Shown piece after piece: positions 283-39,188 of a stretch of 41,861 nt of DNA. The stretch covers positions 1 through 41,861 of the forward strand of contig CAZGID010000002.1 of the NCBI GenBank assembly GCA_964526065.1, read 5' to 3'. The notes below the pieces were generated by a model, which worked only from the letters and a program-made list of their open reading frames with translations, searched no databases and was not told the DNA's origin. The position numbers and the translations under genes were made by a program. Every line of letters begins with the position of its first letter. The stretch's first letter is position 1. This DNA is from an uncultured bacterium (GTDB lineage: Bacteria > Omnitrophota > Omnitrophia > Omnitrophales > Aquincolibacteriaceae).

Positions 283-286
283 CGCA

Positions 287-3421: not shown

Positions 3422-3424
3422 AGT

Positions 3425-5735: not shown

Positions 5736-5749
5736 ATTAATCTGTGGAT

Positions 5750-7644: not shown

Positions 7645-7657
7645 TTTTTATCCAATT

Positions 7658-8575: not shown

Positions 8576-8592
8576 AAAGTCATCGCTTCTGG

Positions 8593-9231: not shown

Positions 9232-9232
9232 T

Positions 9233-11092: not shown

Positions 11093-11240
11093 AGATTCGC
11101 CTTATAAATCCAAAGGCCATTCCCTTATCTTTCTTTTTGCATTACAGTCATTATCCACAATCCGTGGTCGCGCATGAAAAAAGACATCGAAACTATCAGC
11201 CCGCAATGCTTGCCTCATATACATCGCTGATAAAGACATT

Positions 11241-12086: not shown

Positions 12087-12116
12087 GAATAAACCGTCGT
12101 TCCTCTATGCATCTAC

Positions 12117-13322: not shown

Positions 13323-13324
13323 TG

Positions 13325-14086: not shown

Positions 14087-14154
14087 TCACAGCTTCGCCC
14101 TCTCAGTCCCAGGCCGGGACCTCCGAGGGCATTCTCCTTGTTGCTCTTTTTGTA

Positions 14155-14718: not shown

Positions 14719-14789
14719 CGGAGCCTCCATGGCCGGGATATGCAAAGGCCATTTCCCGCCTGCCGTCACATCCCGGGAAAATGGATGGG

Positions 14790-20698: not shown

Positions 20699-22192
20699 TT
20701 AGCGTGAAAGCAATTCCGTCAGCAGCCGGACACCGACCCCCGTCGCCCCTTTGGCACAATCAAAGCGCCCGCTGTTAGACCAGGCTGTGCCGGCAATGTC
20801 CAGATGTGCCCAGGCGGTCTTTTCCGGAATGAATTCCTTGAGGAACATCGCCGCGGTGATCGTCCCGCCATACGGACCGCCGACATTCAGAAGATCCGAG
20901 TGATACCCCTTAATGAATTCGCGATAATCCTCCCAGATCGGCAGCTGCCAGCAGCGCTCTCCGGTCGCTTCACCCGCCTGGATGATTTTCTGAACCAGAT
21001 TTTCGTCGTTCCCCATTAAGCCGATGGCCTTGTCGGCAAAGGTGTAGAGGCACATCCCGGTCAATGTCGCCAGATCGATCAGCATTTTGGGTTTATACTT
21101 GGCGGAATAGGACAAGGCGTCCCCCAGAATCAGCCGGCCTTCGGCGTCCGTATTGATCACTTCCACGGTTTTCCCGTTGTACATCGTAATGATGTCGCCC
21201 GGACGCTGCGGATCCTCGGCCACAGAATTCTCGGCGGTCGGCACCAGACCGACCACATGCCGTTTCAGCCCCAAATCGGCCACCACGCCCAGCGTCCCAA
21301 TGACGGTCGCAGCTCCCGACATGTCGTATTTCATCTTTTCCATGTCCTTGGACGGCTTGATCGAGATGCCGCCCGTATCAAATGTAACCCCTTTACCCAC
21401 CAGGCAGACAGTCCCCTTCGACTGATACGCCTTGCCGTACTCCAGAATAATCAGCGCCGGGGGCACGGTGCTGCCCTGGCCCACAGCCAGGATGCCGTTC
21501 ATTTTCAATTTCTCCAGTTCGGCTTTTCCGAAGACTTCGCAGTGAATCTTCTTTTTTCGCGCCATCTCTCTGGCTTCTTTCGCCAGCTGCTGCGGGTGCA
21601 AAACATTGCCCGGTTCATTAATCAAGTCGCGGGCGCGGATGACTCCTTCGGCAATCGCCAGATGCGCGGCAATTTTTTTATCGAGAGAGGCCAGAGACCC
21701 CTTGCGGGCCAGAAACGCTTCAAAACGAATATCCGCCTTTTTTCCGTTCTCTCCCTGAGTCCGGTACCGGTCGAATTCATAAAGTGCCAGTTTCTCCATT
21801 TCAGCAAAGATGCCAGCCGCTTCGGCGAGCGTGACCTCACCCGAAACAAAGGTCTCCAGGGCAATCCGGACCGTTTTCGCTTTAATGGCGCGCGCCTTGC
21901 GCACGATTTCACTGGCGGCTTTCCGGAAGCACATTTTGCGGTAATCTTTCTTCGGCCCCATCCCGACGAGAAAAAATTCATGGGCCTGAGTGTAGTCCGG
22001 ATTGTAGGTCATTAACTGCTGGGCAGGTTTGCCGTCGAAGCGCCCTTTGCTGACGGCCTGCTGGCTGGCTTCATAAGCCGCCGGTTCCAGCGTGCGCAGT
22101 TCGCGCGCCGGTCCTTCTTTTTCAAAACAGGCGGCGACAAATAAATCGGCGCGGACTTTTTTCTCGGAAGAGGGAATCAAAACCAGACTCAT
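20699..22192 (-). CDS. pepA: Leucyl aminopeptidase (M17 family)
   Basis: VGKGVTFDTGGISIKP..., NTDAEGRLILGDAL, the diagnostic M17 active-site motifs. AAAGGAG lies 6 nt before the ATG. Confidence 0.92.
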   Translation of the reverse strand: MSLVLIPSSEKKVRADLFVAACFEKEGPARELRTLEPAAYEASQQAVSKGRFDGKPAQQLMTYNPDYTQAHEFFLVGMGPKKDYRKMCFRKAASEIVRKARAIKAKTVRIALETFVSGEVTLAEAAGIFAEMEKLALYEFDRYRTQGENGKKADIRFEAFLARKGSLASLDKKIAAHLAIAEGVIRARDLINEPGNVLHPQQLAKEAREMARKKKIHCEVFGKAELEKLKMNGILAVGQGSTVPPALIILEYGKAYQSKGTVCLVGKGVTFDTGGISIKPSKDMEKMKYDMSGAATVIGTLGVVADLGLKRHVVGLVPTAENSVAEDPQRPGDIITMYNGKTVEVINTDAEGRLILGDALSYSAKYKPKMLIDLATLTGMCLYTFADKAIGLMGNDENLVQKIIQAGEATGERCWQLPIWEDYREFIKGYHSDLLNVGGPYGGTITAAMFLKEFIPEKTAWAHLDIAGTAWSNSGRFDCAKGATGVGVRLLTELLSR

Positions 22193-22209
22193 GAGAGCTC
22201 CTTTCCGGC

Positions 22210-22235
22210 GGATTTTCGTTAAATCCGTACGGATT
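22210..22235. promoter_or_regulatory. Nested inverted repeats (operator-like) in the pepA upstream region
   Basis: GGATTTT-cgtt-AAATCC-GTAC-GGATT. It contains the perfect 14-nt palindrome AATCCGTACGGATT (22222-22235), about 30 nt upstream of the pepA ATG. Confidence 0.3.
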
Positions 22236-22317
22236 GTGCGCGGGCTATTGGGACCCGCGCCTTTTCTGATGATGGGTTAATGAGTGCAACAGCCTGTCAT
22301 TTTAGCGCAAAAGTGCT

Positions 22318-22346
22318 TTGAAGCAAATGGCGTGTCGACATAGAAT
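22318..22346 (+). promoter_or_regulatory. Candidate sigma70-type promoter giving a leaderless mRNA
   Basis: TTGAAG (22318-22323), exactly 17 nt, TAGAAT (22341-22346), 6 nt (GGGGGC), then the ATG at 22353. Confidence 0.45.
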
Positions 22347-22352
22347 GGGGGC

Positions 22353-22928
22353 ATGCGCCGCGAACCTCAAAAAGGCCTGCAGGCTATTCTCTGGTGGGTT
22401 GTCTGGATTTCCCTGACAATTCTTTCTTTTTTTGGAGCCGTCGCCATCTGGTCCCCCATCATCGCCCGCCATTTCGGCAGCGTTCGCGAAGGCCAGGCGG
22501 CGGTCTTCTGGGTGATCGCCGTTTTCGGCACCTGGATGATTTTTCTGGTGCCGCTGATCGTCTACATGTATTTCCGCGTCGATAAAGCCTATGACGACGC
22601 CCGTATTCGCCGGGAAAAGGCGGCGATGCGCTTTCGTTCCATTGAAGTTCCCTCAAACAAAAGAGCCTTGCGCCCGGAAGTTGCATCTCATCTGACCCCG
22701 CTTCCTGAAACCATTCAGGGTGGTCACGTTGTTGCCCTCCGGCTGACGGACGGCCGGGAAATTCCTTACGCCTTTATTGCGCAGCGGCGGGAAATTCTGG
22801 GGCTTTATAATCAGCGGGAGATGTCCTTTACCGGCGGCGATGTCGTCCAAGTCATTCCGTACCCGGAACTGCCTCCGCTTCTGGTCGCCGCCAACTGGCT
22901 GCGGCTCGACGGTGTCAGCCTGGATTAA
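22353..22928 (+). CDS. Membrane protein with an uncharacterised C-terminal domain (paralog A)
   Basis: Two N-terminal TM helices (...VFGTWMIFLVPLIVYMYFR) and a soluble tail GGHVVALRLTDGREIPYAFIAQRREILGLYNQ...WLRLDG, shared with the gene at 23534-24307. Confidence 0.7.
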   Translation: MRREPQKGLQAILWWVVWISLTILSFFGAVAIWSPIIARHFGSVREGQAAVFWVIAVFGTWMIFLVPLIVYMYFRVDKAYDDARIRREKAAMRFRSIEVPSNKRALRPEVASHLTPLPETIQGGHVVALRLTDGREIPYAFIAQRREILGLYNQREMSFTGGDVVQVIPYPELPPLLVAANWLRLDGVSLD

Positions 22929-23293
22929 GCCGCTGCTTCCGGATTTTCTTCGCGGGATTTCTGATTGCAAACGCTTTTCAGCGTGAGGGCGGGTGCTTTC
23001 TCGATGCCTTCCGTATAAGAGAACATCGGAATGGTATCCCAGGGGCAGTGTTTCGCGCAAAGTGCACAGCCAATACAGCGTTCGATATCGACTTCCACCA
23101 CCTGCTGGAACTGGGCAAAGTCGGCGCCCGGCACAATTTCAATGCAGTCGACGGGACAAAAAACGATACAGGCTTCACAGCCCGTGCAACCGTGCTGGTC
23201 GATGACAGCCAATAGCCGGGGCTCCCGTTTGCGTTCGGGTTTGGCAGCAATTTGGGGCGGCCGGGGGCCTTTTCTTGCCGTATTTTCCGTCAT
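22925..23293 (-). CDS. 2x[4Fe-4S] ferredoxin with a basic N-terminal extension
   Basis: CTGCEACIVFCP and CIGCALCAKHCP, two CxxCxxCxxxCP motifs. Confidence 0.85.
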   Translation of the reverse strand: MTENTARKGPRPPQIAAKPERKREPRLLAVIDQHGCTGCEACIVFCPVDCIEIVPGADFAQFQQVVEVDIERCIGCALCAKHCPWDTIPMFSYTEGIEKAPALTLKSVCNQKSREENPEAAA

Positions 23294-23354
23294 CGTAAAA
23301 TCCTTACTAAGAAGATGGTAACACAGGGCCTATCGGCCTTCAACGCCCGCGACT

Positions 23355-23537
23355 TTACCCTCGGGGACGCGCCAGGCGGCATACCAGCCAGCCAAAAGCA
23401 AAAACCAGAATGGAACCGGTAAACGCGGCAATCGCGGCGCCTTCATCCCGGTCAAATTCGGTAATCCACAAACTAACCGGCATCAGGATCAAACCGGCCA
23501 GCTGAAGCAGTCGCCCGGCCCGCCAAATCCACTTCAT
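23355..23537 (-). CDS. Small two-helix membrane protein
   Basis: 60 aa with two hydrophobic segments. The ATG overlaps the stop of the upstream gene by 4 nt (ATGA). Confidence 0.5.
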   Translation of the reverse strand: MKWIWRAGRLLQLAGLILMPVSLWITEFDRDEGAAIAAFTGSILVFAFGWLVCRLARPRG

Positions 23538-24307
23538 CCACGTCTCCCGTCAAGGCGCAGCCAGCGGGCTTCTTCATAAGGCGGCAGGCTCTCGGGCTTC
23601 AGAACTTCCACCCCTTCGATTTCTTCCATCGAAAAAGAAAGCGCTTCGGCATCATAAATGCCGAGAATTTCGCGCCGGTGCAGGATAAAGACATGCGGAA
23701 TCACGCTTCCATTCCGGAGCCTCAATGAAACTACATGGCCTTCCCCAACGGTGGGGGCAATCCCTTCCAACTGCAAACGGGCCAGCCCGGGCAGCTGACG
23801 GGAGGCCTTATCATAAAAACGGGCGCGGAACTGCGGACCCGGCGCCGCTTGCTCCTGGCGTGCATCGCGAAAAATTTGATCGGCCCGCCGGTACATCAAA
23901 ATCAGAAAGGGCAGAAGGACAACCAGCCAGGTGACCAGCACCGCCTTGACCCAGGGGCCATAAATACCGGATCCTCCCAGCTCCTCCCGGTACCGCCAGC
24001 TCCAAAAGAACAAACTGCCGATCAGCGCTCCGATAAAAATCATCATGGCCGTCTGCCACGCATCCACCGCTTTTTCCTGATGCGTATTCAGCCGCTTCCA
24101 GACGCGCTCTTTCTTGCGCATAAAGGGAATGACGAGGATAAACCAGGTGCCGAAAACCGAAATCGCCCAGGTGATTTCGCGCGCGCTTCCTTCGATCGGA
24201 CCCAGCGCCTTCTCGATCAAGACCGTCCAGCCTGCCGCGGCCAGCACGAAGGAGCCGGCAAACCAGCAAATCCATCCGAGCCAGAAACGAAATCCGAAGC
24301 GGTCCAT
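23534..24307 (-). CDS. Membrane protein with an uncharacterised C-terminal domain (paralog B, duplicated TM module)
   Basis: Four TM helices. The VFGTW-type module occurs twice (VFGTWFILVIPF; LVTWLVVLLPFLILMYRR). C-terminal EGHVVSLRLRNGSVIPHVFILHRREILGIYDA...WLRLDG. Confidence 0.7.
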   Translation of the reverse strand: MDRFGFRFWLGWICWFAGSFVLAAAGWTVLIEKALGPIEGSAREITWAISVFGTWFILVIPFMRKKERVWKRLNTHQEKAVDAWQTAMMIFIGALIGSLFFWSWRYREELGGSGIYGPWVKAVLVTWLVVLLPFLILMYRRADQIFRDARQEQAAPGPQFRARFYDKASRQLPGLARLQLEGIAPTVGEGHVVSLRLRNGSVIPHVFILHRREILGIYDAEALSFSMEEIEGVEVLKPESLPPYEEARWLRLDGRRG

Positions 24308-24310
24308 AAG

Positions 24311-24724
24311 CTACATCCGATAGAGCATCCAGTAAACGACGACGCCGGTGACCGAAACGTACAGCCAGAGAGGCAATGTTTTTTTTCCGATCCGGACATG
24401 CCGCACGAAGTCACCGCGCAAACCGCGCACCAGCGTCATCACCACCATAGGAAGGATCACGACAGCCAAAATGGTGTGGGAAAGAAGAATTGTAAAATAC
24501 ACCCAGCGGATCCAGCCTTCTCCGCCAAAGCGTGTGCTGCCATGGTGATAATGATAAGACAGGTAGGAGATCAAAAAAAGAACGGAGGTCATGCAGGCCG
24601 CCAGCATACTCATGGTGTGCGCCGTAATGGCCCGCTGCCGGATAAAGATATAACCCAGCACCAGTAAAAAAGCACTGGCGAGATTCAGACCCGCGTTCAC
24701 CGCCGGCCAATGAATCTCCGGCAT
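24311..24724 (-). CDS. DUF420 family membrane protein (CtaM-like)
   Basis: MPEIHWPAVNAGLNLASAFLLVLGY...SYLSYHYHHG...ILLSHTILAVV...LWLYVSVTGVVVYWMLY. Start at the ATG at 24724, sharing one base with the permease stop (TGATG). Confidence 0.8.
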   Translation of the reverse strand: MPEIHWPAVNAGLNLASAFLLVLGYIFIRQRAITAHTMSMLAACMTSVLFLISYLSYHYHHGSTRFGGEGWIRWVYFTILLSHTILAVVILPMVVMTLVRGLRGDFVRHVRIGKKTLPLWLYVSVTGVVVYWMLYRM

Positions 24725-25506
24725 CACGTTAATTGCTCCGGGCCGCGTTCCGCGGCAAAGCGTGCGGCCAGCAGCAACGAAATAACCGCGAGCCCCGCCG
24801 TCACGGCGCAGGAAAGGGCGGCATCCGGCAGCAAGGGAAAGGCTTCCGGTCCCGAAAGCACCTGCCGCAGCGCTCCCAGCCCGTAGGTTAATGGATTGAC
24901 CTGCATCAAAACGCGGATCCATACCGGCGCGCCTTCAAGGGGAAACAGCGCTCCCGAGAGAAACCACAGCGGCATCAGCAGCAGATTCATCACCGCATGA
25001 AATCCCTGAATGGAATTCATGCGCCACGCCAGCAAAAATCCGCCGGCCGTTAAAAAGAAGGCATTCAGAAAAAGAATTCCCGCCACCTGCAAAATGGCGG
25101 CTGGCGACAACGAAAAACCCGCAACCGGCGCAAGCGCCAGAAAAAAGAGCCCCTGCAGCCAGGCTAATCCCGCTCCGCCCAAAATTTTTCCAAGCGCCAG
25201 ACTCCAGGATGGTACCGGAGCGACCAGCACGGATTGCATAAATCCCTCCTGCCGGTCCTGAATCAGGGAAAAAGTGGAAAACACGGCCGTAAAAAGCAGG
25301 ATCAAATACAGGGTGCCGGGATAGAAATAAGCGAGGTAATTCGTATCCCCCGTTCCCGCCTGAAATGAGCTTCCGAATCCGGCACCGATAAAAAGCCAAA
25401 AAATAATCGGGGAACCGAGCGCGCCGGCGACACGGCTGGGCTGACGCCAGAAACGGATCATTTCGCGCTTCCACAGCATGGCGGCAGCTAAAAGAGCGGG
25501 CTTCAT
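24724..25506 (-). CDS. ABC-2 type transporter permease
   Basis: 260 aa and six hydrophobic helices. N-terminal WKREMIRFWRQPSRV is typical of ABC-2 permeases. 4-nt overlap with the ATPase gene. Confidence 0.8.
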   Translation of the reverse strand: MKPALLAAAMLWKREMIRFWRQPSRVAGALGSPIIFWLFIGAGFGSSFQAGTGDTNYLAYFYPGTLYLILLFTAVFSTFSLIQDRQEGFMQSVLVAPVPSWSLALGKILGGAGLAWLQGLFFLALAPVAGFSLSPAAILQVAGILFLNAFFLTAGGFLLAWRMNSIQGFHAVMNLLLMPLWFLSGALFPLEGAPVWIRVLMQVNPLTYGLGALRQVLSGPEAFPLLPDAALSCAVTAGLAVISLLLAARFAAERGPEQLT

Positions 25507-26420
25507 GCGATTTCCTGAAGGTGACGGCCGGTTTTATGCATAAACACATCGGCCAGCGTCGGCTTGCGAAAAATCACCGACTGAATGCGGCCGGGAAAAG
25601 CTTCCACCAGCCGGGTCAAAAAACGATGGCCCTCGGGATGCTCAATTTGCAAGGCATCGTCCGCAATCTGAACCGGTGTTTTAAATTCCGCCTCGATTTC
25701 TTTCGCCAGATCCGCCGGAACGGCCGTCCGGATTTCAAGCACATCACCGCCGATCTGGTTTTTTAATTCCTCCGGTGCTCCCAACGCGGCAACGGTTCCC
25801 TCCGCCATAATCGCAATGCGGTCCGCATACTCCGCTTCTTCCATTAAATGCGTCGCCATCAAAATGGTGAGCCCATCGCGTTTGCGCAATAACGCCAGGT
25901 GATGCCAGAGATCCAGACGCGCTCCCGGGTCCAGACTGCCGGAGGGTTCATCCAGAATCAAAAGCGCGGGACGATGCACCAGCGCCTTGGCAATCTCAAC
26001 CCGCCGCTTGAGCCCGCCCGAAAGTTTTTCGCTGCGCTCCTGCCACCGGTCTTCGAGCCCAAATCGTGCCGCCATCTCCCGGGCCCGAGATTTCAATGCC
26101 TCTCCCGCCAGCCCGTAAAGCTGCCCCTGGTAAAGCAGATTTTCTCCTACCGTCAATTTGGGATCCAGACTGGACGACTGGAAGACCACCCCGAGCCGGC
26201 GGCGGACTTCATGCACCGCTTCGGCCACATCGCAGGCGTCGATTCGAACCTTGCCCGCCGGAATTTGAAGTAAGGTTGAGAGAATCCGCAGCAGCGTGGT
26301 TTTTCCGCTGCCGTTCGGTCCGAGGAGGCCGAAAATTTCTCCCGCATGAACTTCCAGATTTAATTCTTGCAGCGCTTTGCGGCCGTCATAAGCGTAGGTG
26401 AGTTTCTGGATTGAAATCAT
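25503..26420 (-). CDS. ABC transporter ATP-binding protein (ABC-2 subfamily partner)
   Basis: Walker A GPNGSGKTT, signature LSGGLKRR, Walker B LLILDEP. Confidence 0.9.
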   Translation of the reverse strand: MISIQKLTYAYDGRKALQELNLEVHAGEIFGLLGPNGSGKTTLLRILSTLLQIPAGKVRIDACDVAEAVHEVRRRLGVVFQSSSLDPKLTVGENLLYQGQLYGLAGEALKSRAREMAARFGLEDRWQERSEKLSGGLKRRVEIAKALVHRPALLILDEPSGSLDPGARLDLWHHLALLRKRDGLTILMATHLMEEAEYADRIAIMAEGTVAALGAPEELKNQIGGDVLEIRTAVPADLAKEIEAEFKTPVQIADDALQIEHPEGHRFLTRLVEAFPGRIQSVIFRKPTLADVFMHKTGRHLQEIA

Positions 26421-26421
26421 G

Positions 26422-27321
26422 TCAGGCTTTGTCGACCAGCATCAGAATAAAAAGCAGCGAGAGATAAATAATGGAAGCGCGGAATAAAATTCTGGCGCCG
26501 CGTTCCATGCTGCGCACACATCCGGCGCTGACCGCCACCAAAAGGATCCCGAGCAGCAAAGCCCCGCTGAAATAAAAAACGCCCGTCAGGCCGATGAGAG
26601 TCGGCAGCAGGCTGACCGGAAGCAGCACTAAGGCATAAGTAACCGACTGTTTTGCCAGCTGCCCGCCTTCGGGATCGGAGACCGAAAGCACCTGCAATCC
26701 GGCCCTCGCATAATCCTGCCGGAAAATCCAGGCAATCGCGTAAAAATGCGGCATCTGCCAGAGAAAAAGGATCATAAAAATCACGGCCGCTCCGCTGTCC
26801 CAAATGGTGCCGCGCGCTGCGGCCCAGCCGATTAACGGCGGTAAAGCGCCCGGCAAGGCCCCGACCAGCGTGCACCAGGCCGTCTGCCGTTTGAGCGGTG
26901 TATAGAGGAACAAATAACTCAGCAGGGTCAGCGCTGCAATCAGGCTCGCCAGTGAATTAACGCTCATTTCCAGGATTCCAATTCCCAGTACCGCAAGCAC
27001 CAGGCCAAACCCCAGCGCCTCGGCGGGATCCACACGGCCGGAAGGAATCGGACGGCGATGCGTGCGGGTCATCAATGCATCGACATCACGCTCCATCCAT
27101 TGATTCAACACCATGGAGGCGGCCGCCACGAGCGAAGTGCCGCCCATCATCGCCCAGAAAACCGGCGCCGGCGAAAAATTTCCGGCCGCCAGAAAATACC
27201 CGATCATCGTGCTGAAAAGCACAAGAAAAACCAGCCGCGGCTTCATAAGTTCCCAGTAATCGAGAATCAGCGCCTGCGCCTGAGCAAAACGGTCGGTCTC
27301 GTGAAAATCCCGGTTCTTCAT
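26422..27321 (-). CDS. ctaB: Protoheme IX farnesyltransferase (heme O synthase)
   Basis: WELMKPRLVFLVLFSTMIGYFLA..., DALMTRTHRRPIPSGRV, the UbiA-family CtaB/CyoE motifs. Start at the ATG at 27321, in an ATGA overlap with the ctaA stop. Confidence 0.88.
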   Translation of the reverse strand: MKNRDFHETDRFAQAQALILDYWELMKPRLVFLVLFSTMIGYFLAAGNFSPAPVFWAMMGGTSLVAAASMVLNQWMERDVDALMTRTHRRPIPSGRVDPAEALGFGLVLAVLGIGILEMSVNSLASLIAALTLLSYLFLYTPLKRQTAWCTLVGALPGALPPLIGWAAARGTIWDSGAAVIFMILFLWQMPHFYAIAWIFRQDYARAGLQVLSVSDPEGGQLAKQSVTYALVLLPVSLLPTLIGLTGVFYFSGALLLGILLVAVSAGCVRSMERGARILFRASIIYLSLLFILMLVDKA

Positions 27322-28160
27322 TGATGCGCCCTTAACGTGATCAAGACCATTAACCCCAGAATGAGGGCGCCGCCGGTTTGATGGGCCACCGTAAACCAGA
27401 CTTCCGGTCCGGACGGCGCATACCCGGCTTCCAGCAAACGTGTCACAATAAAGGAACCGATTCCCAGAAAAAACTGAATCAGCACCAGAAAACCGATCAG
27501 CCGCGTCACCCAGGGAAGAAGAAAGTCGCGGCTGTACTGCCCTGAAACGCCTAGAAAAACCCGGAGAATGTGAAACAGAACCGCAAAAGCCATCAGCACA
27601 TGCAGACCGATGGCCCATCCATTGCCGGTATGCCGCACGGTGGCGCCCAGAATTAATTGGAGATAAAGAATAACGGCCGTCACCACCATCAGCTTTCGCA
27701 GACGCGGCGCCTGGGCAGGTGCTTCTTCAACGGGCGCATGCGGACGGGAAAGAAAATAAGCAAGGGCGATCAGCAGACAAAAAAAAGTTTGTCCCAGACA
27801 AGCATGGGCAATGGAAACCGCAGACGGCAGCATGAGGATAACCGTCAATCCTCCGAGAAGCGCCTGAATCACGACAGCCGCAAGACAGATCCACGCCAGA
27901 CGCCGGACAATGCCCTTTTCACGCCAGTGAACCCACAGTGTCAGAATCAGCGTCAGAATCCCGACGGTCCCCGCAATCATGCGATGCCCGTGTTCCCAGA
28001 AAATATTGCCGACCATGGGCGGAAAAAACTGACCGTAGGAAAGCGGCCAGTCGGGAACGGCGAGACCGGCTTCATGGCTTGTGACCAGACCTCCGGCCAA
28101 AATCAACAAGAAGGTGGCAGCGACCACCAGGCGGGCATAACGTGAAAGCCAAATATCCAT
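27318..28160 (-). CDS. ctaA: Heme A synthase (COX15/CtaA family)
   Basis: LILAGGLVTSHEAGLAVPDWPLSYGQFFPPM...WEHGHRMIAG and a second His-containing half, the eight-helix CtaA pattern. Confidence 0.85.
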   Translation of the reverse strand: MDIWLSRYARLVVAATFLLILAGGLVTSHEAGLAVPDWPLSYGQFFPPMVGNIFWEHGHRMIAGTVGILTLILTLWVHWREKGIVRRLAWICLAAVVIQALLGGLTVILMLPSAVSIAHACLGQTFFCLLIALAYFLSRPHAPVEEAPAQAPRLRKLMVVTAVILYLQLILGATVRHTGNGWAIGLHVLMAFAVLFHILRVFLGVSGQYSRDFLLPWVTRLIGFLVLIQFFLGIGSFIVTRLLEAGYAPSGPEVWFTVAHQTGGALILGLMVLITLRAHQ

Positions 28161-28175
28161 GCGTCGATGAAGTTA

Positions 28176-28220
28176 TTAAATTAAAAGGGACCCTCCCGGT
28201 ATTTCATCCGGGAAGGTCCC
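28176..28220 (-). terminator. Strong rho-independent terminator between the cupredoxin gene and ctaA
   Basis: Minus strand: GGGACCTTCCCGG, 8-nt loop, CCGGGAGGGTCCC (13 bp with one G-U pair), then TTTTAATTTAA. The plus strand has no T tail. Confidence 0.8.
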
Positions 28221-28236
28221 AGGAAGATACAATCGA

Positions 28237-28938
28237 TCAGGCGGAAAAGGAAAAATCAACGGTCGAGGCAGCAGCCTCATCCACCGTGATTTCCTGAGTC
28301 TGGGTCCCGTACTTTTCGTGCCAGGCTTCCAGAACGTAGGTGCCTGCCGGCAAATCCTTGATTTCAAAAGTTCCCTGATCGCCCGTCACGCTGTAGAACG
28401 GATGCGTCAGGACCCCGGCATAAGCGTTCATCCAGGGATGGACGTCACATTTGAATTTGACCATGACTTCCGGCTCCTTGAACTGACGCTTTAACTTCAT
28501 GCCTTTGATCGGCATGCCCAGATTAAACTCTTTGGATTTTTCAGGCATCCCATGCACATTGTGAAGTGTGCTGTCGCTGTTCATGATTTCAAGCGGCTGG
28601 TCGACTTGAACGCCGAAGACATGGGGATGATACTGACAGCCTGACTGGTCCAGCTTGGCGGGTTCTTTAGGCGCGGGAAATGTCTGCCCCTCTAACCCTT
28701 CTTTGATATAAACAAAAACGTTCTGCAACGTTCCGTTTTCATTAACAACGACTTCTTCAGTATAAACCGGTCCGCTGTGCAAACTGGCGCACGTCGGATC
28801 AGCGTCCATATTAATGCGGGTCGGTTCGGGCGGTGTGCCGGAAAAGTTCACGGTTCCCGTGACGGTCGCCGCCAGGGCTGCATGACTGCCGGTCAAAAGT
28901 GCCAGCAGAGTTCCCAACATCCAGAAATGCTTCCTCAT
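28237..28938 (-). CDS. Secreted cupredoxin (type 1 copper) protein flanked by Ig-like/carboxypeptidase-regulatory-like segments
   Basis: Signal peptide MRKHFWMLGTLLALLTGSHAALA. Candidate Cu ligands are H in STLHNVH and C-x2-H-x2-M in KCDVHPWM. AAGGAGGAGG precedes the ATG. Confidence 0.7.
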   Translation of the reverse strand: MRKHFWMLGTLLALLTGSHAALAATVTGTVNFSGTPPEPTRINMDADPTCASLHSGPVYTEEVVVNENGTLQNVFVYIKEGLEGQTFPAPKEPAKLDQSGCQYHPHVFGVQVDQPLEIMNSDSTLHNVHGMPEKSKEFNLGMPIKGMKLKRQFKEPEVMVKFKCDVHPWMNAYAGVLTHPFYSVTGDQGTFEIKDLPAGTYVLEAWHEKYGTQTQEITVDEAAASTVDFSFSA

Positions 28939-28965
28939 TGTTTCCTCCTCCTTGAAGTCGCTGCC

Positions 28966-31794
28966 TCAGGAAGCCTGCGTTCCCGCAGCTGCCGGGGCCG
29001 GTTCCTGAATCCGTGCCGCCTCTTCGGGTGTGAAGACCATCATATAATCCCGGAGAGCACGGATCTGCTTGTGCATATCGCCGTCTAGTATATCACCAAC
29101 CGGGGACTGTCCGTCATAAAAGAATGTCGGCATCATCGTCCCTTCCTGGATCGCCTGCGGATCCTCGAGCCATGCCAGAATCCAGTCCGGACGAAGCCGC
29201 TCTTTTGCCATCACCAGATTCGGGGCCAGGAAAGAAGCCGATAAGCCCGCGGGCGGATTGGCCTGATGGCATTTGATGCACTGGAAGGTTTTGAAAAGCT
29301 CGCGGCCGGCCTCAATATATTCTGGTGTCGTCGGCGGAATTTCATTAGCCGTAAAGGCCGGGCCCAGCTCTGACAAGTGATTGAAATAAAGAATCAGCGT
29401 CGTGAGCTCGTGGTGATCGAAACCAAAAGTCGGCATCCGGATATTCAACCATGGCCGGATTGTGACGGGACTTTCCAGAAAGTGATAAAGCCAGGGTTCC
29501 TGCACCTTGCTGCCCTCACCCGGCAGAACCGGGGGTGCCATACCAGTATCTTCTTCATAAAGTGCCCGGACTCGTCCCTCAATACCATCCACCGTATGAC
29601 AACCCTGGCAGTTGAACTTTTTGACCAGAAAGCGTCCCGATTCGGTTTCCGCCTCCCGCTGGGTCAATACATCCTGCATTTCAAGCGGAACCTCGCCGTG
29701 CTGCAAGCTCAACAAAAATGTAACAAGCGCTCCGGCTTCTTCATCGGTAAATCCAAATTGCGGCATGCGCAATTTATCCAGATAGGGTTTTACCCTGCCT
29801 TCATCAAAACTGCGCGGATGTTTCAGTTTTTGAAAGAACCAGTCCTGACGGGTGCGGGGGATATCGATAAAACCAAAATCCAGTTTGGCCACTTCCTTGG
29901 AGCCTTCTTCCGTCAACTCGGTGCCAATCGGCTTCGCATCTTCAAATCCCTTGATGTCATGGCAGCCAAAACATCCCTGCCGCGCAATCATTTTACGGCC
30001 CAGATACTCGAGCCGCTCCTGGCGGCCCATTTTTTCCAGCTCGGCGGCGGCGTCTTCATGCCGCATTTGACCGGTCATGAAATTGAGCACCATTTCATTG
30101 ACGACTTCCGGCTTTATGACCGGCAGGCGCTGGCTCTCGAACTTTTCATTGTGATCCTGCAGCAGAAAACTGGCAATGTCGGCGGCCTCCTGATCATTCA
30201 GCCGCAGATTCGGCATCCGTGTTTCAGCATAATAGTGTTGCGGATTCTTGAGCCAGGTAAAAAGCCATTCCGGTGTCACTTTACTTCCCAGACCCGACAG
30301 GACCGGGCCGTGATCGTTCACGGCAGCGTCTCCAACGGTATGGCAGCCAAGACATCCGACAGATTCCACCAGCTGCCTCCCGCGTTCGGGGTCTCCCGCG
30401 GCCGGAAGCGTCTGCAAGGCGACGGGTTCGGAATATTTCATCAGATAAGCGGCGATACCGGCGATGGCCGCATTTTCCTTTTCAACATTCTGCGGATCAT
30501 CTGTATTTTCCAGATGAAAAATCCGCGGCATATTGGTCTCAGGACGGAATTCTTTCGGGTTATGCAGCCAGCGCACAATCCAGTCCTCGGTCAATTTGCT
30601 TTGGATATGCGTCAAACCGGGACCGGCTTTCCAAACCTCTTCAAAGCCTTCCACTTTATGACAGCCGAAACAGCCATTAACGCGCGCCAGCTCGCGGCCC
30701 TGATTCAACCGCGGCGCCTGCGGCACGTCGACGACCCCCTGATGGCACTTGGCGCAAGAAGCTTCAATATGCTGGCTCGGCAGCATCTTATCCGCCCAGA
30801 ATTCCATCGGATGCCAGCCGTATTTCTTTTTCCATTCCTCGGCTTCTTCCGCCGAAGACGGCGTATGCGCAGCGGTCACAAAACTCACGGAATGCCCGCT
30901 TCCGCCATGGCACGTCGTACAGCCGACGGTTTCCAGCGGATGCGGAGATTCGGATCCCAGATACAGATCAAGGTCGGGATGCGTCGTAAACGGCTGCGGC
31001 GCATCTTCAAACCCGGCCTGATCAATGCCGAGATGGCACGTTGTGCAGCGATCCACTTTTTGAACCCGCACGTAATAAAAATCGTCATAAATGTTTTCGA
31101 TGACGGCCTGCTGAATGCGCAAAGTCGGATTCATAAAATCCAGCATCGGGGCATTCAGGATTTCCTTGTCCCAGGAAAACGTATACTTATCCACCTTCTC
31201 TTCCAGCCGGGTGATTTCCTGCGTCAGCACCTTAAGATCGCGGTCCGCTTGCATCAGGTCGGTCATGAGTGCATCCAGCTGATTCTGCACCACTTCCTTT
31301 TCTTTTTCGATCCCTTCAACATCCCGTTGAGCCGTTTCGATTTCCTGCGCCCGAATTTCAAGACGCCGCTCAAAAGGTTCGGCCTTCTCTTCGTTTCCGT
31401 GATGCATGTGCTCTTCATAGTAATACCGGTCCGAATCCTGAAACTGTTTCAGATTCTGGTAATGGCTGTTGGCATTGGCATACGCCACATCAAGACGCGC
31501 CAGCTCCTTGCGCAAACCGGCCATTTCCTCACGCCGTTCCTCGAGGCTGATTTCGGCCGCCTGCATCTGCGCTTTCAAAGCATCAATTTTTTGCTGGTCG
31601 AGTTTCTTGCGGGCTTCTGTCAGCTCCAGTTCCGTTTTCTGACGGTTGTACGCCATAAACTTGCGCTGCCACATTTTCCATTCCCTCGAGCTGTCCTGAA
31701 AAACCATGGCAACCAGACCAATCAGAAGAAGAAGCGAGGCAACCAAAAACCAGAGGGTCGTTTTCCGTGTATTGTAAAGGCTTGGGGATGGCAT
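28966..31794 (-). CDS. Membrane-anchored octaheme c-type cytochrome with a long coiled-coil linker
   Basis: Eight CxxCH motifs: CTTCH twice, CAKCH, CFGCH twice, CLGCH, CQGCH, CIKCH. One N-terminal TM helix. Start placed at the ATG at 31794, 1 nt after the upstream stop, rather than at 31827. Confidence 0.88.
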   Translation of the reverse strand: MPSPSLYNTRKTTLWFLVASLLLLIGLVAMVFQDSSREWKMWQRKFMAYNRQKTELELTEARKKLDQQKIDALKAQMQAAEISLEERREEMAGLRKELARLDVAYANANSHYQNLKQFQDSDRYYYEEHMHHGNEEKAEPFERRLEIRAQEIETAQRDVEGIEKEKEVVQNQLDALMTDLMQADRDLKVLTQEITRLEEKVDKYTFSWDKEILNAPMLDFMNPTLRIQQAVIENIYDDFYYVRVQKVDRCTTCHLGIDQAGFEDAPQPFTTHPDLDLYLGSESPHPLETVGCTTCHGGSGHSVSFVTAAHTPSSAEEAEEWKKKYGWHPMEFWADKMLPSQHIEASCAKCHQGVVDVPQAPRLNQGRELARVNGCFGCHKVEGFEEVWKAGPGLTHIQSKLTEDWIVRWLHNPKEFRPETNMPRIFHLENTDDPQNVEKENAAIAGIAAYLMKYSEPVALQTLPAAGDPERGRQLVESVGCLGCHTVGDAAVNDHGPVLSGLGSKVTPEWLFTWLKNPQHYYAETRMPNLRLNDQEAADIASFLLQDHNEKFESQRLPVIKPEVVNEMVLNFMTGQMRHEDAAAELEKMGRQERLEYLGRKMIARQGCFGCHDIKGFEDAKPIGTELTEEGSKEVAKLDFGFIDIPRTRQDWFFQKLKHPRSFDEGRVKPYLDKLRMPQFGFTDEEAGALVTFLLSLQHGEVPLEMQDVLTQREAETESGRFLVKKFNCQGCHTVDGIEGRVRALYEEDTGMAPPVLPGEGSKVQEPWLYHFLESPVTIRPWLNIRMPTFGFDHHELTTLILYFNHLSELGPAFTANEIPPTTPEYIEAGRELFKTFQCIKCHQANPPAGLSASFLAPNLVMAKERLRPDWILAWLEDPQAIQEGTMMPTFFYDGQSPVGDILDGDMHKQIRALRDYMMVFTPEEAARIQEPAPAAAGTQAS

Positions 31795-31795
31795 A

Positions 31796-32878
31796 TCAGA
31801 TGTTGAAAAAGAACTCCGGAATAGCAACCAGATATTTGAGATTAAACGCCCAGCGCAGAATCATTTTGATCGGAAGCGACATCATGGCCAGAAAAAGAAA
31901 CATCAGGATGTGATACCGTGCCGCACCGAGCGTTTCATACATTTTTTTAAGCCGTGTTTTGGCCAGCAGCAAGGGCGGCACAATGAAATACAGCAAGACC
32001 AGAAGAATGCCGGGGGCCTCGCGGATGAACCATGCCTCCGGAAGTCCCCGGTTCAAGCCTTTGATAAAGATAAACTCGGACAGATTGACGTTGACCAGCG
32101 GCACGACTTTATGAAGATTCCAGGTTTCGAACGGACCGAAAAAGTTCCAGTTCGGGCCGCGCAAAAACGTGCCGACTCCGATCAGAAGAATCCAGAGAAT
32201 CCAGAAACCAAAAAGAAAAGCCGCAATGCCCCACCGGCGCGATTTGAAACAATAGTAACCGGAGGTTTTCGGGTCATTATCAATATAGGGAATGGCCGCC
32301 AGCCCGATAATAATCAGCGTGGGGAAAAACACACCCGCCAGCCAGGGATCAAAATAGACCAGCATTTCCTGCAGCCCTAAAAAGTACCAGGGCGCTTTGG
32401 AGGGGTTGGGAGAAATCGACGGATTGGCCGGCTCCTCCAGCGGCGCCTTCAAAAGCAATGACCAAACCACCAGCAGAACCGAACAAAAAAGTGCCACCAC
32501 AAACTCGATATAGATCAGGTAAGGAAAAACCATGACCTTTTCTTCCGCTTCAGCCTTTTCCACCGTCGGTTTGCCCGCCGCCAGCCGCCCGTCATTGATG
32601 ACAGCTTTGCGCATGGCATACCAGGTGAAATATCCGAAGATGAAAAGCATGCCCACAATCGGAACATTGTCGGGCTTGGTGACAATGGAGCGAAAGTGGT
32701 CGTCCGTCAAACCGATTCCGAAAAAGAGCACGGAAACAATCAAAGCCGGGACGGCAACCCACAGCGAGGTCATAACAGCGGGAAAAGCGATCAACAGGGC
32801 AAGCACCAGGATGGAACCGAAAAAGATACTGACCGGCGAAGAAGCCGCATTAACAAGCTCCTTGAAGACATCGATCAT
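31796..32878 (-). CDS. Cytochrome b C-terminal part (b6f subunit IV-like), extended with extra helices
   Basis: [19 protein letters not shown] corresponds to the PEWY Qo loop of subunit IV and the cytochrome b C-terminal domain. 360 aa with many TM helices. 4-nt overlap with the cytochrome b6-like gene. Confidence 0.85.
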
Positions 32879-33705
32879 AAGGGCGCGCTGATGCCTCCAT
32901 CTTTACGGATGCGCCAGAAGTGCACCGCCATGAGAATGACCGCAGCGACCGGGATCGCTACACAGTGCAGAATATAAAAGCGCAGAAGGGTGGCTTCACC
33001 GACAAATCGGCCGCCAAGCAAAGCAAACCGTGCATCCGAACCGGAATGAATCAAAGGGAATTCGCCGATTTTGAGAAGCGCGGCCCCCGGACCTTCATGC
33101 CCCAGAAACGGAGTGGCGCGCGCCATATTGCTGCCAACGGTAATTGCCCAGATGGCCAGTTGATCCCAGGGAAGCAGATAACCCGTAAAGCTGAGCAGCA
33201 TCGTCAAAACCAGCAGAATGACACCAACCACCCAGTTGAATTCACGCGGGGGTTTATAGGAACCCGTCATGAAGACCCGGAACATATGCAGCCAGACGGT
33301 AATAATCATGGCATGTGCGCCCCAGCGGTGCAGCTCGCGCATAATGCCGAACGGGACGTGTTCTCTTAAGGCGATGATGTCGTTATACGCATATTCGACG
33401 GTCGGACGGTAATAGAACATCAGAAGAATGCCGCTGACCACCAAAGTTAAAAAGATAAAGAAGGTCAGCCCGCCGGCGCACCAGGTAAAACCGAAACGCG
33501 CGCCCTGTTTGCGGATTTTGACGGGATGCAGATGGAAAAAAACGTTGGTCAGAACGGTCATGGCCCGGTCCCGGTCGTCGGTGCTGTAGCCATGGCGGAA
33601 AATAGATTTTCCGACCTGGGTCTTCAGCCGGAAATCTTTAAAGGAAGGAAGTTTGAATTTAGAAAAAAATGATGGCTTTTTTGGATCCTTGTTTTCCGCC
33701 CCCAT
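32875..33705 (-). CDS. Cytochrome b6-type subunit (N-terminal four-helix part of cytochrome b)
   Basis: [47 protein letters not shown]...[16 protein letters not shown]. Close motif-by-motif match to plastid and cyanobacterial cytochrome b6, including the C-terminal GIS-x-PL. Confidence 0.9.
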
Positions 33706-33722
33706 AACTCCCTTTCTAAATC

Positions 33723-34358
33723 CTAGAGCATCAAAAGGCTGGCCGGATTATTCCATTCGCCTTTTTCATACTGAAACTTGCGGCTCTTGTCCACCAGCAC
33801 CTGCCCGTCATCGGCCAGCAGAATCGCAAACCTCTCCAGCGGACGCGGCGCCGGACCTTCAAAGTTAATGCCGCTTTTATAAAAGCCGCTGCCATGACAC
33901 GGGCATTTGAACTTTTGCTCGTTTTCCAGCCAGCTCGGCGTGCAGCCCAAATGCGTACAAACAGTCGACAAAACATACATGCCTTCCATTGAACGCACCA
34001 CCCAGATGGCATATTTTTCTTTCCAGCGGGTATCGACCACGCCGACATCATAATCTTCCGGCTTGCCGATCTTAAAGCTCATCTTGGGTTCAAACAAAAC
34101 ATTGGGGAAAAGAAAACGGACACAGGTTGAAATTGCAACCAGCGAAGCCGCTGCAAAAGAAGCCCACGCCACATTCAGCCAGTTCACCACAAAAGCGCGG
34201 CGTGCGGGAGAAGCCGGAGCAGCGGTACGGGCCGCCGGAGCTGATGCAGCGGGGCTGGCTCCTGCCGGAGCGGCCGGACGCGGCGGCACAGGTGCCTCGG
34301 GCTTTTTATCGGCCGGGCCGCCGGCACCTGCCGGCTGATTCTTGTTCTCTTCGTTCAT
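33723..34358 (-). CDS. Rieske [2Fe-2S] subunit
   Basis: CTHLGC and CPCHGS boxes. Twin-arginine-like SPARRAFVV before the TM anchor. Ala/Pro-rich low-complexity N-terminus. Confidence 0.9.
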
Positions 34359-35221
34359 ACCGCTTTCGATTCCGTCAGTTGATTCAGGGATTGCATCGCC
34401 GCCTGCCGGACTTTGAGGCTCGGATCCTCGCCGGCAAGTTGACGAATCAGAGGGACAGCATCTTTACGTCCAAGAAGCGCGATTCCTTTAACCGCGCTGG
34501 TCATAATTTCTTCCTTTTGTTCTTCGGTCAGACCGCCTGAAGCATCCAGCGAAATGCGGTCGATCATTTGCAGTAATTCTTCATACCCTTCCGGCCTTCC
34601 CAGACGCGCTAGCGACAACGCTGCATTCCAGCGCACATCCTGATGCCGGTCATCCAGTAAAGCAATCAACGCGTCCGCGCTTGCATCCGATCCGACCGCC
34701 CCCAGCACATAGGCGGCCATTTTACGGATATGAGGATCTTCACTTTTGAGAAAATCGCGAATCTGGGCTTCGGCTGCCCGGGCTTCCTTGACGCCCAGCG
34801 CCCATAGCAAAAAGAGCTGCACATCAATATCTTTTTCCTGACTCAAAGCATTCTGCAGCGCCGGGATCACTTCGGGTTCATCAAATCGGCTGAGCGCTAC
34901 AGCCATATAAGAACGGGTTTTCGGATCGTATTCGGACCGGCTGGTCAGAATATGAATCACTTCTTTCATCACGCCGGAAGAACGAAGCAATCCTCGCCCC
35001 TGATTCAGCTCATTGGAAAGCTCATAGGCCTTTTGCCAGCGCTTGCTCGGTGTTCCGGTTTTGATTGCTGTGATGAGCGATTCGGGAGTTTCAGCTTCGC
35101 GGGTGAGCAGGACGACAGTACATAAGAGAATAGCCATCCCGACCGCGATAAGCAGCGGGAAAAGGAAGAGGCCATAAAATAATTTACGGCCGGATTCTTT
35201 CTGCTCGATGGTTCCAGTCAT
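34355..35221 (-). CDS. Membrane-anchored HEAT-repeat protein
   Basis: One N-terminal TM helix followed by repeated about 30-aa helical units (...DPHIRKMAAYVLGAVG..., ...HQDVRWNAALSLARLG..., ...SLKVRQAAMQSL...). Confidence 0.7.
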   Translation of the reverse strand: MTGTIEQKESGRKLFYGLFLFPLLIAVGMAILLCTVVLLTREAETPESLITAIKTGTPSKRWQKAYELSNELNQGRGLLRSSGVMKEVIHILTSRSEYDPKTRSYMAVALSRFDEPEVIPALQNALSQEKDIDVQLFLLWALGVKEARAAEAQIRDFLKSEDPHIRKMAAYVLGAVGSDASADALIALLDDRHQDVRWNAALSLARLGRPEGYEELLQMIDRISLDASGGLTEEQKEEIMTSAVKGIALLGRKDAVPLIRQLAGEDPSLKVRQAAMQSLNQLTESKAV

Positions 35222-35249
35222 GCTTCAATTGAGAAATTGACAACATCGG

Positions 35250-35278
35250 AATCTAACACGTTTCAGACGCCGATTCAA
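35250..35278 (-). promoter_or_regulatory. Candidate internal promoter upstream of the HEAT/Rieske/cytochrome b genes
   Basis: Minus strand TTGAAT (35278-35273), 17 nt, TAGATT (35255-35250), in the 70-nt gap after ccsA. Confidence 0.3.
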
Positions 35279-35291
35279 CAAAAGTGATCGC

Positions 35292-38809: not shown

Positions 38810-38830
38810 AACGGACTTCCTATATATAGG

Positions 38831-39187: not shown

Positions 39188-39188
39188 A

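Follow-up and report, generated by a model that had tools for sequence, protein, structure and literature searches.

We analysed a stretch of DNA of 41,861 nucleotides (contig CAZGID010000002.1 of assembly GCA_964526065.1, hereafter the window), and in particular eight minus-strand genes at 22925-28160 which include those for heme A synthase (ctaA), heme O synthase (ctaB), an ABC-2 transporter pair, a DUF420 protein and a ferredoxin. We read this segment as the part of a conserved respiratory supercluster which serves cofactor biogenesis; it comes from an Omnitrophota bacterium (class Omnitrophia-like) of activated sludge. The window sequence is contained in public sequencing runs of activated sludge and wastewater. 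Its nearest CtaA homologues, at 48-64% identity, carry the names Omnitrophota or Omnitrophica, and the cytochrome b encoded in the window is 91% identical to that of the metagenome-assembled genome (MAG) GWA2_52_8 (Omnitrophia, Omnitrophales). The eight genes, and the convergent gene which follows them, are as follows (aa, amino acids; TM, transmembrane segments; AF2, AlphaFold2):

27318..28160, minus strand: ctaA, heme A synthase, 280 aa (PF02628, phmmer, invariant residues)
26422..27321, minus strand: ctaB, heme O synthase (protoheme IX farnesyltransferase), 299 aa (TIGR01473, UbiA Pfam)
25503..26420, minus strand: ABC ATPase, 305 aa, partner of the ABC-2 permease (PF00005, intact motifs)
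24724..25506, minus strand: ABC-2 (type V) permease, 260 aa, cta-linked subfamily (PF01061)
24311..24727, minus strand: DUF420/CtaM-family membrane protein, ~137 aa, 4 TM (PF04238)
23534..24307, minus strand: paralog B, 257 aa, 4 TM and a C-terminal beta domain (family alignment, AF2)
23355..23537, minus strand: mini, 60 aa, two TM helices (two hydrophobic segments)
22925..23293, minus strand: 2x[4Fe-4S] ferredoxin, 122 aa, N-terminally extended (basic), CPWD motif (Fer4 matches)
22353..22928, plus strand: paralog A, 191 aa, 2 TM, short form in the same family as paralog B (35% identical)

A preliminary description of this DNA had reported eight coupled minus-strand genes here, and these are present and intact, with junctions as described and no internal stops in any of the eight open reading frames (ORFs). 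The ctaA/ctaB and paralog B/mini junctions are both 4-nt ATGA overlaps. The ABC ATPase follows ctaB after 1 nt and overlaps the permease by 4 nt, the permease and DUF420 genes share one base (ATG start at 24724) or overlap by 4 nt (GTG start at 24727), and paralog B follows DUF420 after 3 nt. Between mini and the ferredoxin gene there is a gap of 61 nt, which makes the coupling of the ferredoxin looser than that of the other seven genes. Together the eight form the downstream tail of a 16-kb same-strand cluster which begins at 38809. On the 3' side of the ferredoxin lie the convergent paralog A, an M17 peptidase and housekeeping genes, and then a low-GC glycan biosynthesis island.

The locus was compared with related loci (identifiers such as L002 and L090) in two sets. 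The CtaA-anchored set comprises 80 loci from context look-ups and from GTDB representative genomes scanned with a CtaA alignment. The permease-anchored set comes from an independent scan of JGI metagenome contigs. Denominators vary with the flanking sequence available.

Heme A synthesis genes and the ABC-2 transporter pair

CtaA matched PF02628 with 85.5 bits (cut-off 29.9) in two stretches, reflecting its internal duplication, and phmmer matched it to the solved enzymes from B. subtilis (6A2J, E = 3.6e-10) and Aquifex (8AW5, E = 1.8e-7). The four heme-ligand histidines and the catalytic glutamate are all present: E56, H59, H119, H187 and H260 align with B. subtilis E57, H60, H123, H216 and H278. 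These five residues, together with R60 and R176, are invariant in 29 homologues, including those from lineages which lack oxidase genes (COX) at the locus. The first outer loop, TSHEAGLAVPDWPLSYGQFFPP, contains no cysteine; it thus lacks the cysteine pair of classes A-C, which places this CtaA in the cysteine-less class D in the scheme of PMC8239418. The third outer loop is very short, at ~10 residues. CtaB matched the heme O synthase equivalog TIGR01473 over its full length (276.3 bits, cut-off 210.3) as well as the UbiA Pfam family (184.8 bits), and ctaB lies directly 3' of ctaA in 76 of the 80 related loci. The DUF420 protein matched PF04238 with 141.7 bits and has four hydrophobic segments, as expected of CtaM; it is encoded downstream of the cta genes in 55/69 CtaA-anchored loci. 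Going by these family assignments, CtaB would farnesylate heme B to heme O, the cysteine-less CtaA would oxidise heme O to heme A, and DUF420/CtaM would act late in the maturation of a heme A oxidase.

The ABC ATPase gene encodes intact Walker A (GPNGSGKT), LSGG signature, Walker B (LLILDE) and H-loop motifs and matched PF00005 with 121.3 bits; among solved structures, its nucleotide-binding domain is closest to those of ABCA3, ABCA4 and ABCA1, which are ABCA lipid transporters (E ~1e-71 to 1e-64). The permease matched PF01061 with 106.6 bits, and its profile weakly resembles ABCG-type transmembrane domains. An ABC2_membrane permease beside a separate ATPase with intact motifs is the composition of an ABC-2 (type V) exporter. 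Across 19 permease orthologues from four phyla the mean column identity was 60%, with 39 invariant columns which include W161, H170, N174 and W181.

The position of this pair is conserved. It follows ctaB in 18/69 CtaA-anchored genome loci. In Omnitrophota, Acidobacteriota, Latescibacterota and a Nitrospirae MAG, permeases of this subfamily are encoded directly after ctaB and the ATPase gene, with (Sco)-DUF420 next in line. In the permease-anchored metagenome loci the ATPase lies directly upstream in 48/51, ctaA/ctaB upstream in 31/35 and DUF420 downstream in 39/50, and Sco directly follows the permease in 19/50. From the linkage across phyla, the high conservation of the permease and the scores below cut-off against drug transporter families, we judge the ABC-2 pair to be a dedicated, conserved component of the cta module and not a drug pump. 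The preliminary description had suggested a role in cofactor, heme or copper handling rather than drug efflux and had proposed looking at the co-occurrence of the pair with ctaA; the linkage is kept across at least four phyla and the suggestion is well supported by this conservation.

It is very unlikely that the pair is an unrelated exporter of a drug, lipid or glycan which lies in the operon by chance. The best NCBIfam matches are indeed to DrrA/DrrB-type and NodI/J-type subfamilies, and an actinobacterial ABC-2 pair beside Rv1456c is treated in the open literature as a drug pump or glycolipid flippase. However, all of these NCBIfam scores are below the curated cut-offs, the place of the permease between ctaB and DUF420 is held across phyla and differing cluster layouts, and 39 invariant columns is unusually high conservation for a permease. 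As to named families, the scores against the DrrAB daunorubicin transporter were 249.6 for TIGR01188 (cut-off 312.45) and 160.3 for TIGR01247 (cut-off 223.05), and the NodI/NodIJ and PQQ-associated ABC families were also rejected on scores under the curated cut-offs. A role for the pair as a substitute for COX3/COX4 was rejected as well, as it co-occurs with COX3 in L019, L038 and L041.

Type V exporters handle lipid-like substrates. Judging by structures of UbiA and CtaA, heme O arises on the inner side of the membrane, and the heme sites of CtaA and Cox1 lie near its outer side. For these reasons we favour farnesylated heme as the cargo: the exporter would use ATP to move a hydrophobic cofactor, or hand it over, on the outer side of the membrane. 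Alternatively the cargo might be copper, delivered to Sco, to DUF420 or to the blue copper protein encoded upstream of ctaA.

The combination of heme O synthase, heme A synthase and DUF420/CtaM genes resembles the ctaA, ctaB, ctaM and Sco sets of B. subtilis and S. aureus, in which ctaM encodes an oxidase maturation factor (PMC9145763), and relatives of the window add Sco and COX2-COX1 to the same operon. In contrast to those sets, the window has the ABC-2 pair between ctaB and DUF420, has no structural oxidase genes at the locus, and has its module appended to a Rieske/cytochrome b-octahaem c-blue copper cluster; its CtaA also differs from the B. subtilis class in having no cysteines and so short a third outer loop.

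Several ABC systems serve as comparisons for the transporter. NosDFY is an ABC-2-type machine which loads copper into nitrous oxide reductase. Like the pair described here, it joins an ABC ATPase and a six-helix ABC-2 permease to metal-centre maturation genes, and here Sco often follows the permease. However, the window permease matches PF01061 and is not NosY-type, and no copper-binding motif was found in it. An identification as NosFY was rejected (PF12679, 17.3 bits against a cut-off of 27.2), and none of the genes seen in the window or the related loci is NosD/NosL-like. CcmAB, CydDC, HrtAB and mammalian ABCG2 are also ATP-driven transporters tied genetically to heme cofactor delivery. The window pair belongs to a different sequence family from CcmB, CydDC and HrtB, and it is linked to the synthesis of farnesylated heme and not to cytochrome c, cytochrome bd or heme detoxification. 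Compared by description, the genes of M. tuberculosis Rv1456c-Rv1457c-Rv1458c and of the four-gene mptB-ABC-ABC2 locus of C. glutamicum are conserved and coupled, and Rv1456c is presumably a COX15/CtaA-family protein, which would give a further ABC-2 pair coupled in translation to a heme A synthase gene. In the M. tuberculosis locus the order is, as we take it to be, reversed: the ctaA-like gene comes after the ABC pair, and neither ctaB nor DUF420 is a neighbour. We found no link of Rv1456c to ctaA in the open literature, where all three proteins figure as a drug pump or glycolipid flippase. If our assumption about Rv1456c is right, this actinobacterial "drug pump" pair may deserve re-reading as a respiratory assembly factor. 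The term "ABC" is absent from the text of the reviews on oxidase assembly and CtaA evolution which we searched.

Ferredoxin and associated membrane proteins

The window ferredoxin contains two CxxCxxCxxxCP motifs, at residues 36 and 73, and matched Fer4_21 with 48.5 bits (cut-off 35), as expected of a bacterial-type 2x[4Fe-4S] protein. Only 4Fe-4S families matched, and an adrenodoxin/Yah1-type [2Fe-2S] identity was rejected. Members of its family are 113-130 aa long; their basic N-terminal segment ends in "LAVI..CTGC", and "CPWD" is a motif of the C-terminus. Most Omnitrophota loci have a member of this family near the cta module. Ferredoxins with 69-93% identity are found near the cta modules of the window, L003, L005, L010, L018, L035, L090, L092, L095, L173 and L176, and a subset of Acidobacteriota loci has a ferredoxin of the same architecture (~40% identity) on the opposite strand, 1.4-6.6 kb from DUF420. 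Where there was enough downstream sequence, the ferredoxin was present in 9/61 genome loci and 9/28 metagenome loci. This linkage to cta modules is far above chance for a single gene, yet it concerns a minority of loci.

The ferredoxin is accompanied by small membrane proteins. A paralog A/B member or mini is found at every Omnitrophota-type locus where the ferredoxin adjoins cta genes. Paralog A and paralog B are 35% identical and share the C-terminal domain; in paralog B this conserved beta domain of ~85 aa is probably cytoplasmic. Paralog A adjoins the ferredoxin in L003, L005, L090, L095, L172 and L176 and lies directly 3' of ctaB in L010 and L035, while paralog B follows DUF420 in L002, L007, L018, L090, L092, L095 and L176. 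Homologues of mini occur just upstream of the ferredoxin, or with a DegT aminotransferase gene between, in L003, L005, L010, L018, L090, L092, L173 and L176. Paralog B had no Pfam or NCBIfam match. Its AF2 model, built on a two-sequence alignment, has a mean predicted local distance difference test score (pLDDT) of 67, with 76-86 in the C-terminal domain, and Foldseek against the PDB found nothing better than E = 1.8 (an Sm-like variant).

In yeast, the heme A synthase Cox15 works with the ferredoxin Yah1 and the reductase Arh1. The likeness to the window lies in a heme A synthase with a soluble iron-sulfur carrier as its proposed partner. However, the window ferredoxin is of the bacterial 2x[4Fe-4S] type and not the [2Fe-2S] adrenodoxin type of Yah1, there is no adjacent reductase gene, and the linkage is lineage-restricted, with one counter-example locus (L174). 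The preliminary description had put forward the ferredoxin as a candidate redox partner of CtaA. In favour of this it recurs near cta genes and in L035 is translationally coupled to them; the linkage does not, however, extend beyond a minority of loci. It remains a candidate, weakly supported, for the electron donor of CtaA, to which a cytoplasmic 2x[4Fe-4S] protein may feed electrons, perhaps with the paralog A/B membrane proteins as its docking site. Just as well, it could be a housekeeping protein located at a synteny border.

We put about even chances on the ferredoxin being only a syntenic neighbour, that is, a general housekeeping protein at the border between cta genes and M17 without a specific role in heme A synthesis. 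This would fit the L174 ferredoxin, which lies next to M17 without cta genes, and the DegT gene or three unrelated genes which separate the ferredoxin from the cta genes in L003, L090 and L176 and in L005, respectively. The 61-nt gap in the window fits too, and the ferredoxin is 76-93% conserved where its neighbours are 45-65% conserved, as expected for a protein with many partners. On the other hand, ctaA-ctaB-paralog A-ferredoxin form a translationally coupled series in L035, in which ctaB and paralog A overlap and paralog A and the ferredoxin abut, and the order in L010 is ctaB-paralog A-mini-ferredoxin. The recurrence in Acidobacteriota in the opposite orientation is also hard to explain by inherited synteny alone.

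In Acidobacteriota-type loci (L115, 9613-10978) the ferredoxin homologue is convergent with the gene for a 307-aa protein in which an N-terminal TM helix and a HEAT-like repeat stretch can be made out by eye; tblastn matches to HEAT adjoin the ferredoxin in L046, L052 and L061. A PNPOx/CREG-like FMN-binding barrel protein follows DUF420 or paralog B in three Omnitrophota cta clusters (L002 15229-15687, L173 9319-9825 and L175 13390-13842), and could be an alternative flavin redox or heme-handling partner.

Oxidase genes at the locus and in relatives

The larger cluster of which the eight genes are the tail includes, on its 5' side, the following features:

28187..28220, minus strand: terminator-like hairpin between the blue copper gene and ctaA (scan of 22000-39500)
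28237..28938, minus strand: blue copper (type 1 Cu-like) protein, putative, secreted, 233 aa (residues H126, C164, H167, M170; PF13620)
28966..31827, minus strand: octahaem cytochrome c, membrane-anchored, 953 aa (eight CxxCH motifs; cytochrome c Pfam)
31796-32878, minus strand: cytochrome b C-terminal/subunit IV-like protein (PF00032)
32875-33705, minus strand: cytochrome b N-terminal part (PF00033/PF13631)
33723-34358, minus strand: Rieske protein (PF00355)
34355-35221, minus strand: HEAT-repeat protein (PF13646)
35292-37004, minus strand: ccsA, System II cytochrome c maturation (identified with resB/ccsB and the HEAT gene by PF13646, PF01578 and PF05140)
37001-38809, minus strand: resB/ccsB, System II cytochrome c maturation (same three families, with ccsA and the HEAT gene)

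The string 5' of ctaA (28237-38809, same strand) thus reads resB-ccsA-HEAT-Rieske-cytb-cytb'-octahaem c-blue copper, and neighbours in the Rieske/cytochrome b stretch share 4-nt overlaps.

The window contains no oxidase genes. Using Omnitrophota COX1, COX2, COX3, COX4 and Sco as queries, tblastn at E<=10 found no remnant of them in its 41.8 kb, the sole match being that of the N-terminal cupredoxin-like domain of COX2 to the 233-aa blue copper gene. Pfam scans of the called genes found no COX, Sco or CtaG family. The absence of oxidase subunit, Sco and CtaG genes noted in the preliminary description was thus upheld. Subunit I and II genes, which would make up a heme-copper oxidase operon, are found at the same position in L007, L018 and L090.

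The most instructive relatives are L090 and L091, in which CtaA is 58% identical to that of the window. Their upstream half reads HEAT-Rieske-cytb-cytb'-octahaem c-blue copper-COX2-COX1-ctaA-ctaB and their downstream half continues ABC-ABC2-Sco-DUF420-paralog B-86 aa-mini-DegT-ferredoxin-paralog A-M17. The window is collinear with them but has no COX2-COX1, no Sco (which in sister lineages follows the permease and precedes DUF420), no 86-aa gene and no DegT. L007 and L018 (GWA2_52_8) are arranged in the same way. As the ABC pair and the oxidase genes stand in one operon in these relatives, the window is merely without the structural genes.

COX2-COX1 is missing from the locus in six Omnitrophota lineages: the window, L087 (its closest relative, CtaA 63% identical), L002, L003, L175 and L176, the cta loci of the last two lying on contigs of 481 kb and 430 kb. 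All six keep ctaA, ctaB, ABC and DUF420 intact. Because CtaA keeps every invariant residue, the sequences indicate that the module in these lineages is under selection and not decaying. A neighbour-joining tree of six concatenated proteins leaves COX-less lineages as one clade unresolved (bootstrap 13-30%) and does not distinguish one loss from several.

The preliminary description had emphasised the lack of oxidase genes; as a mark of something unusual, this emphasis is not supported. Of the CtaA-anchored loci flanked on either side by 6 kb or more, 33/54 have no COX1 within 6-10 kb, as is the case for 21/25 permease-anchored metagenome loci; the COX1-less loci are mostly labelled Acidobacteriota. 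Sister lineages, as described above, carry COX2-COX1 in the same cluster. To have a heme A module with no oxidase genes close by is thus the common state of this CtaA clade, and its occurrence on a contig of 42 kb is ordinary and not proof of a genome without an oxidase. It should be noted that the missing oxidase genes at this locus are therefore not to be over-read.

The hairpin at 28187-28220 has a 13-bp stem with 10 GC pairs followed by a T-run, TTTTAATTTA, and is the strongest terminator-like site in the region scanned. It takes up the greater part of the 76 nt which separate the blue copper gene from ctaA, leaving ~17-27 nt before the ctaA start, and its position is the site of COX2-COX1 in relatives. 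Comparable GC-rich hairpins are found at the same junction in L003 and L010. Rfam gave no family match anywhere in the window; the hairpin is thus no riboswitch of a known kind. Since a terminator-like hairpin precedes ctaA, the biogenesis genes are probably expressed by lower-level read-through or from an unrecognised promoter. This hairpin directly 5' of ctaA, the lack of an obvious ribosome-binding site for ctaA and the absence of COX2-COX1 and Sco, which sister lineages have, would fit a decaying remnant left after loss of the oxidase. We regard this as the least probable of the explanations considered, as all eight ORFs are intact with conserved catalytic and ligand residues, translational coupling is preserved and the COX-less arrangement persists in lineages whose CtaA proteins share no more than 53-63% identity.

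A heme A module without an oxidase at the locus may be read in two further ways. We consider it most likely, with somewhat better than even confidence, that the genome has the genes of a heme A oxidase at another site, and unlikely that heme A serves a client other than an oxidase; the rest of the probability goes to a recent loss or to no decision. In the form of the latter set out here, heme A or heme O would be made in a lineage without any heme-copper oxidase, either for the Rieske/cytochrome b-octahaem complex or for export by the ABC-2 pair. This too is unlikely in our view. It would account for the six lineages which keep ctaA-ctaB-ABC-DUF420 without COX2-COX1, next to the Rieske/cytochrome b genes except in L175, and of which the window and L002 also lack Sco. 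L010 and L035 have the Rieske/cytochrome b, multihaem cytochrome, cupredoxin, ctaA, ctaB, paralog A and ferredoxin genes without COX, ABC, Sco or DUF420. There is also a precedent in the Sulfolobales terminal oxidase and quinol-oxidising "ba" complexes, where PMC12808453 describes heme a in a Rieske/cytochrome b-type complex, carried by cytochrome b analogues; these are archaeal, however, and the window cytochrome b gives no indication of binding a heme other than heme B.

The absence of oxidase genes is judged on only 20-42 kb per genome, and the COX-less local arrangement is the majority in Acidobacteriota too. DUF420/CtaM is kept, and the only role known for it is in the maturation of oxidases (PMC9145763). 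L003, L175 and L176 also keep Sco, and the sludge of the habitat is aerated. The evidence of DUF420/CtaM, Sco and an aerated habitat leans towards another heme A oxidase. The joint proposal that farnesylated heme is made without any heme-copper oxidase and goes to the adjacent Rieske/cytochrome b-octahaem complex or to an outward handover by the ABC-2 pair is quite unlikely; if true, it would amount to bacterial use of heme A outside oxidases. In a less radical form, the ABC-2 pair may be a dedicated delivery machine for farnesyl-heme (or copper) and the ferredoxin the electron donor of CtaA.

Taken as a whole, the eight genes are fairly likely to be the biogenesis module of a respiratory supercluster, in which CtaA, CtaB and DUF420 work with an integral ABC pair and a candidate ferredoxin for a client oxidase encoded elsewhere. 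Within the cta/cox biogenesis module the ABC-2 pair is a conserved, uncharacterised component, and the ferredoxin and membrane partners are lineage-specific. Several observations weigh against this interpretation. The window and L002 lack both COX2-COX1 and Sco, by separate deletions, which leans towards loss of that oxidase as more parsimonious than relocation. As a weak point, none of the seven Omnitrophota-type COX1 proteins named in nr maps, by NCBI accession block, to the COX-less, PGAP-annotated assemblies GCA_020632475.1 or GCA_030698625.1; the search used the L090 protein, returned at least 120 matches and covered oxidases down to ~67% identity, and the L007 COX1 is not among the matches listed. 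The terminator-like hairpin stands before ctaA and the eight genes have no recognised promoter, and the only trace of RNA is one "RNA-Seq" metagenome with two 151-nt contigs inside ctaA, from a library which may contain DNA. The adjacency of Sco to the permease fits copper as the cargo as well as heme. Finally, the ferredoxin is missing near most cta modules, with L002, L009 and L175 having modules without it, and the L174 ferredoxin (84% identical) lies beside M17 with no cta, paralog A or Rieske genes within 10 kb; a search for paralog A/B in L174 found none.

The locus touches two questions of oxidase biogenesis, namely how electrons are supplied to bacterial heme A synthase and by what route farnesylated heme or copper reaches subunit I. 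The window and ~100 related loci offer candidates for both: an ABC-2 subfamily which is almost always found between ctaB and (Sco)-DUF420 in at least four phyla, and a small ferredoxin and a membrane-protein family which accompany ctaAB in some lineages.

Clusters of different composition were also seen among the relatives. L175 (3508-13385) reads resB-ccsA-180 aa-blue copper-88 aa-ctaA-ctaB-ABC-ABC2-Sco-DUF420, and the genes for a Rieske protein, cytochrome b and the octahaem cytochrome are missing from it, so the tie between the cta/ABC module and a bc-type complex is not a strict one. L010 (2-6418) and L035 (3258-12626), from MAGs labelled Planctomycetia, have the order Rieske/cytb-octahaem c-blue copper-ctaA-ctaB-paralog A-(mini)-ferredoxin, and no ABC pair, DUF420, Sco or COX genes were found in their flanks. 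Of the cluster forms seen, this one is the most compact and couples ctaAB most tightly to the ferredoxin. A member of the di-iron alternative oxidase family (PF01786, 31 bits, cut-off 22.7) is encoded inside an Omnitrophota cox/cta cluster in L173 (8679-9335).

Upstream respiratory genes and other genes of the window

The blue copper gene lies directly upstream of ctaA in 38/77 related loci. Residues H126, C164, H167 and M170 of the 233-aa protein (C-x2-H-x2-M) are invariant in 70 homologues and would form a type 1 copper ligand set, making this a putative blue copper protein. Its sole Pfam match was PF13620, to a CarboxypepD_reg-like C-terminal domain, and no cupredoxin Pfam profile matched. 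The COX2 of relatives has an extra N-terminal copy of the blue copper domain, 64% identical to the window protein and fused before COX2_TM/COX2, as follows:

L090, 6618-8216: COX2 with N-terminal blue copper domain
L005, 6896-8380: COX2 with N-terminal blue copper domain

Further upstream, the octahaem cytochrome c gene is kept after the cytochrome b genes in relatives, and the HEAT-ccsA-resB gene order is also found in L003, L087 and L176. A plus-strand ORF of 809 aa (29377-31806) runs antisense across nearly the whole octahaem cytochrome c gene and is probably a by-product of codon bias in the sense gene. Beyond resB, a TauE/SafE-family ORF (38831-39187) covers only profile positions 129-237 of 237 and is therefore a half-size or truncated transporter gene; it adjoins a gene for an RNase H-like (RVT_3) protein (39189-39602).

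At the other end of the window, a 14-kb block (1-14100 and 14155-14769) has a GC content of 41-45%, against 52-59% elsewhere. Its genes are all on the minus strand and encode GT2/GT4 glycosyltransferases, methyltransferases, a sulfotransferase, a pyruvyl transferase and an ABC exporter. With a NusG paralogue just upstream, the block has the look of a glycan island which brings its own antiterminator and may have come by horizontal transfer.

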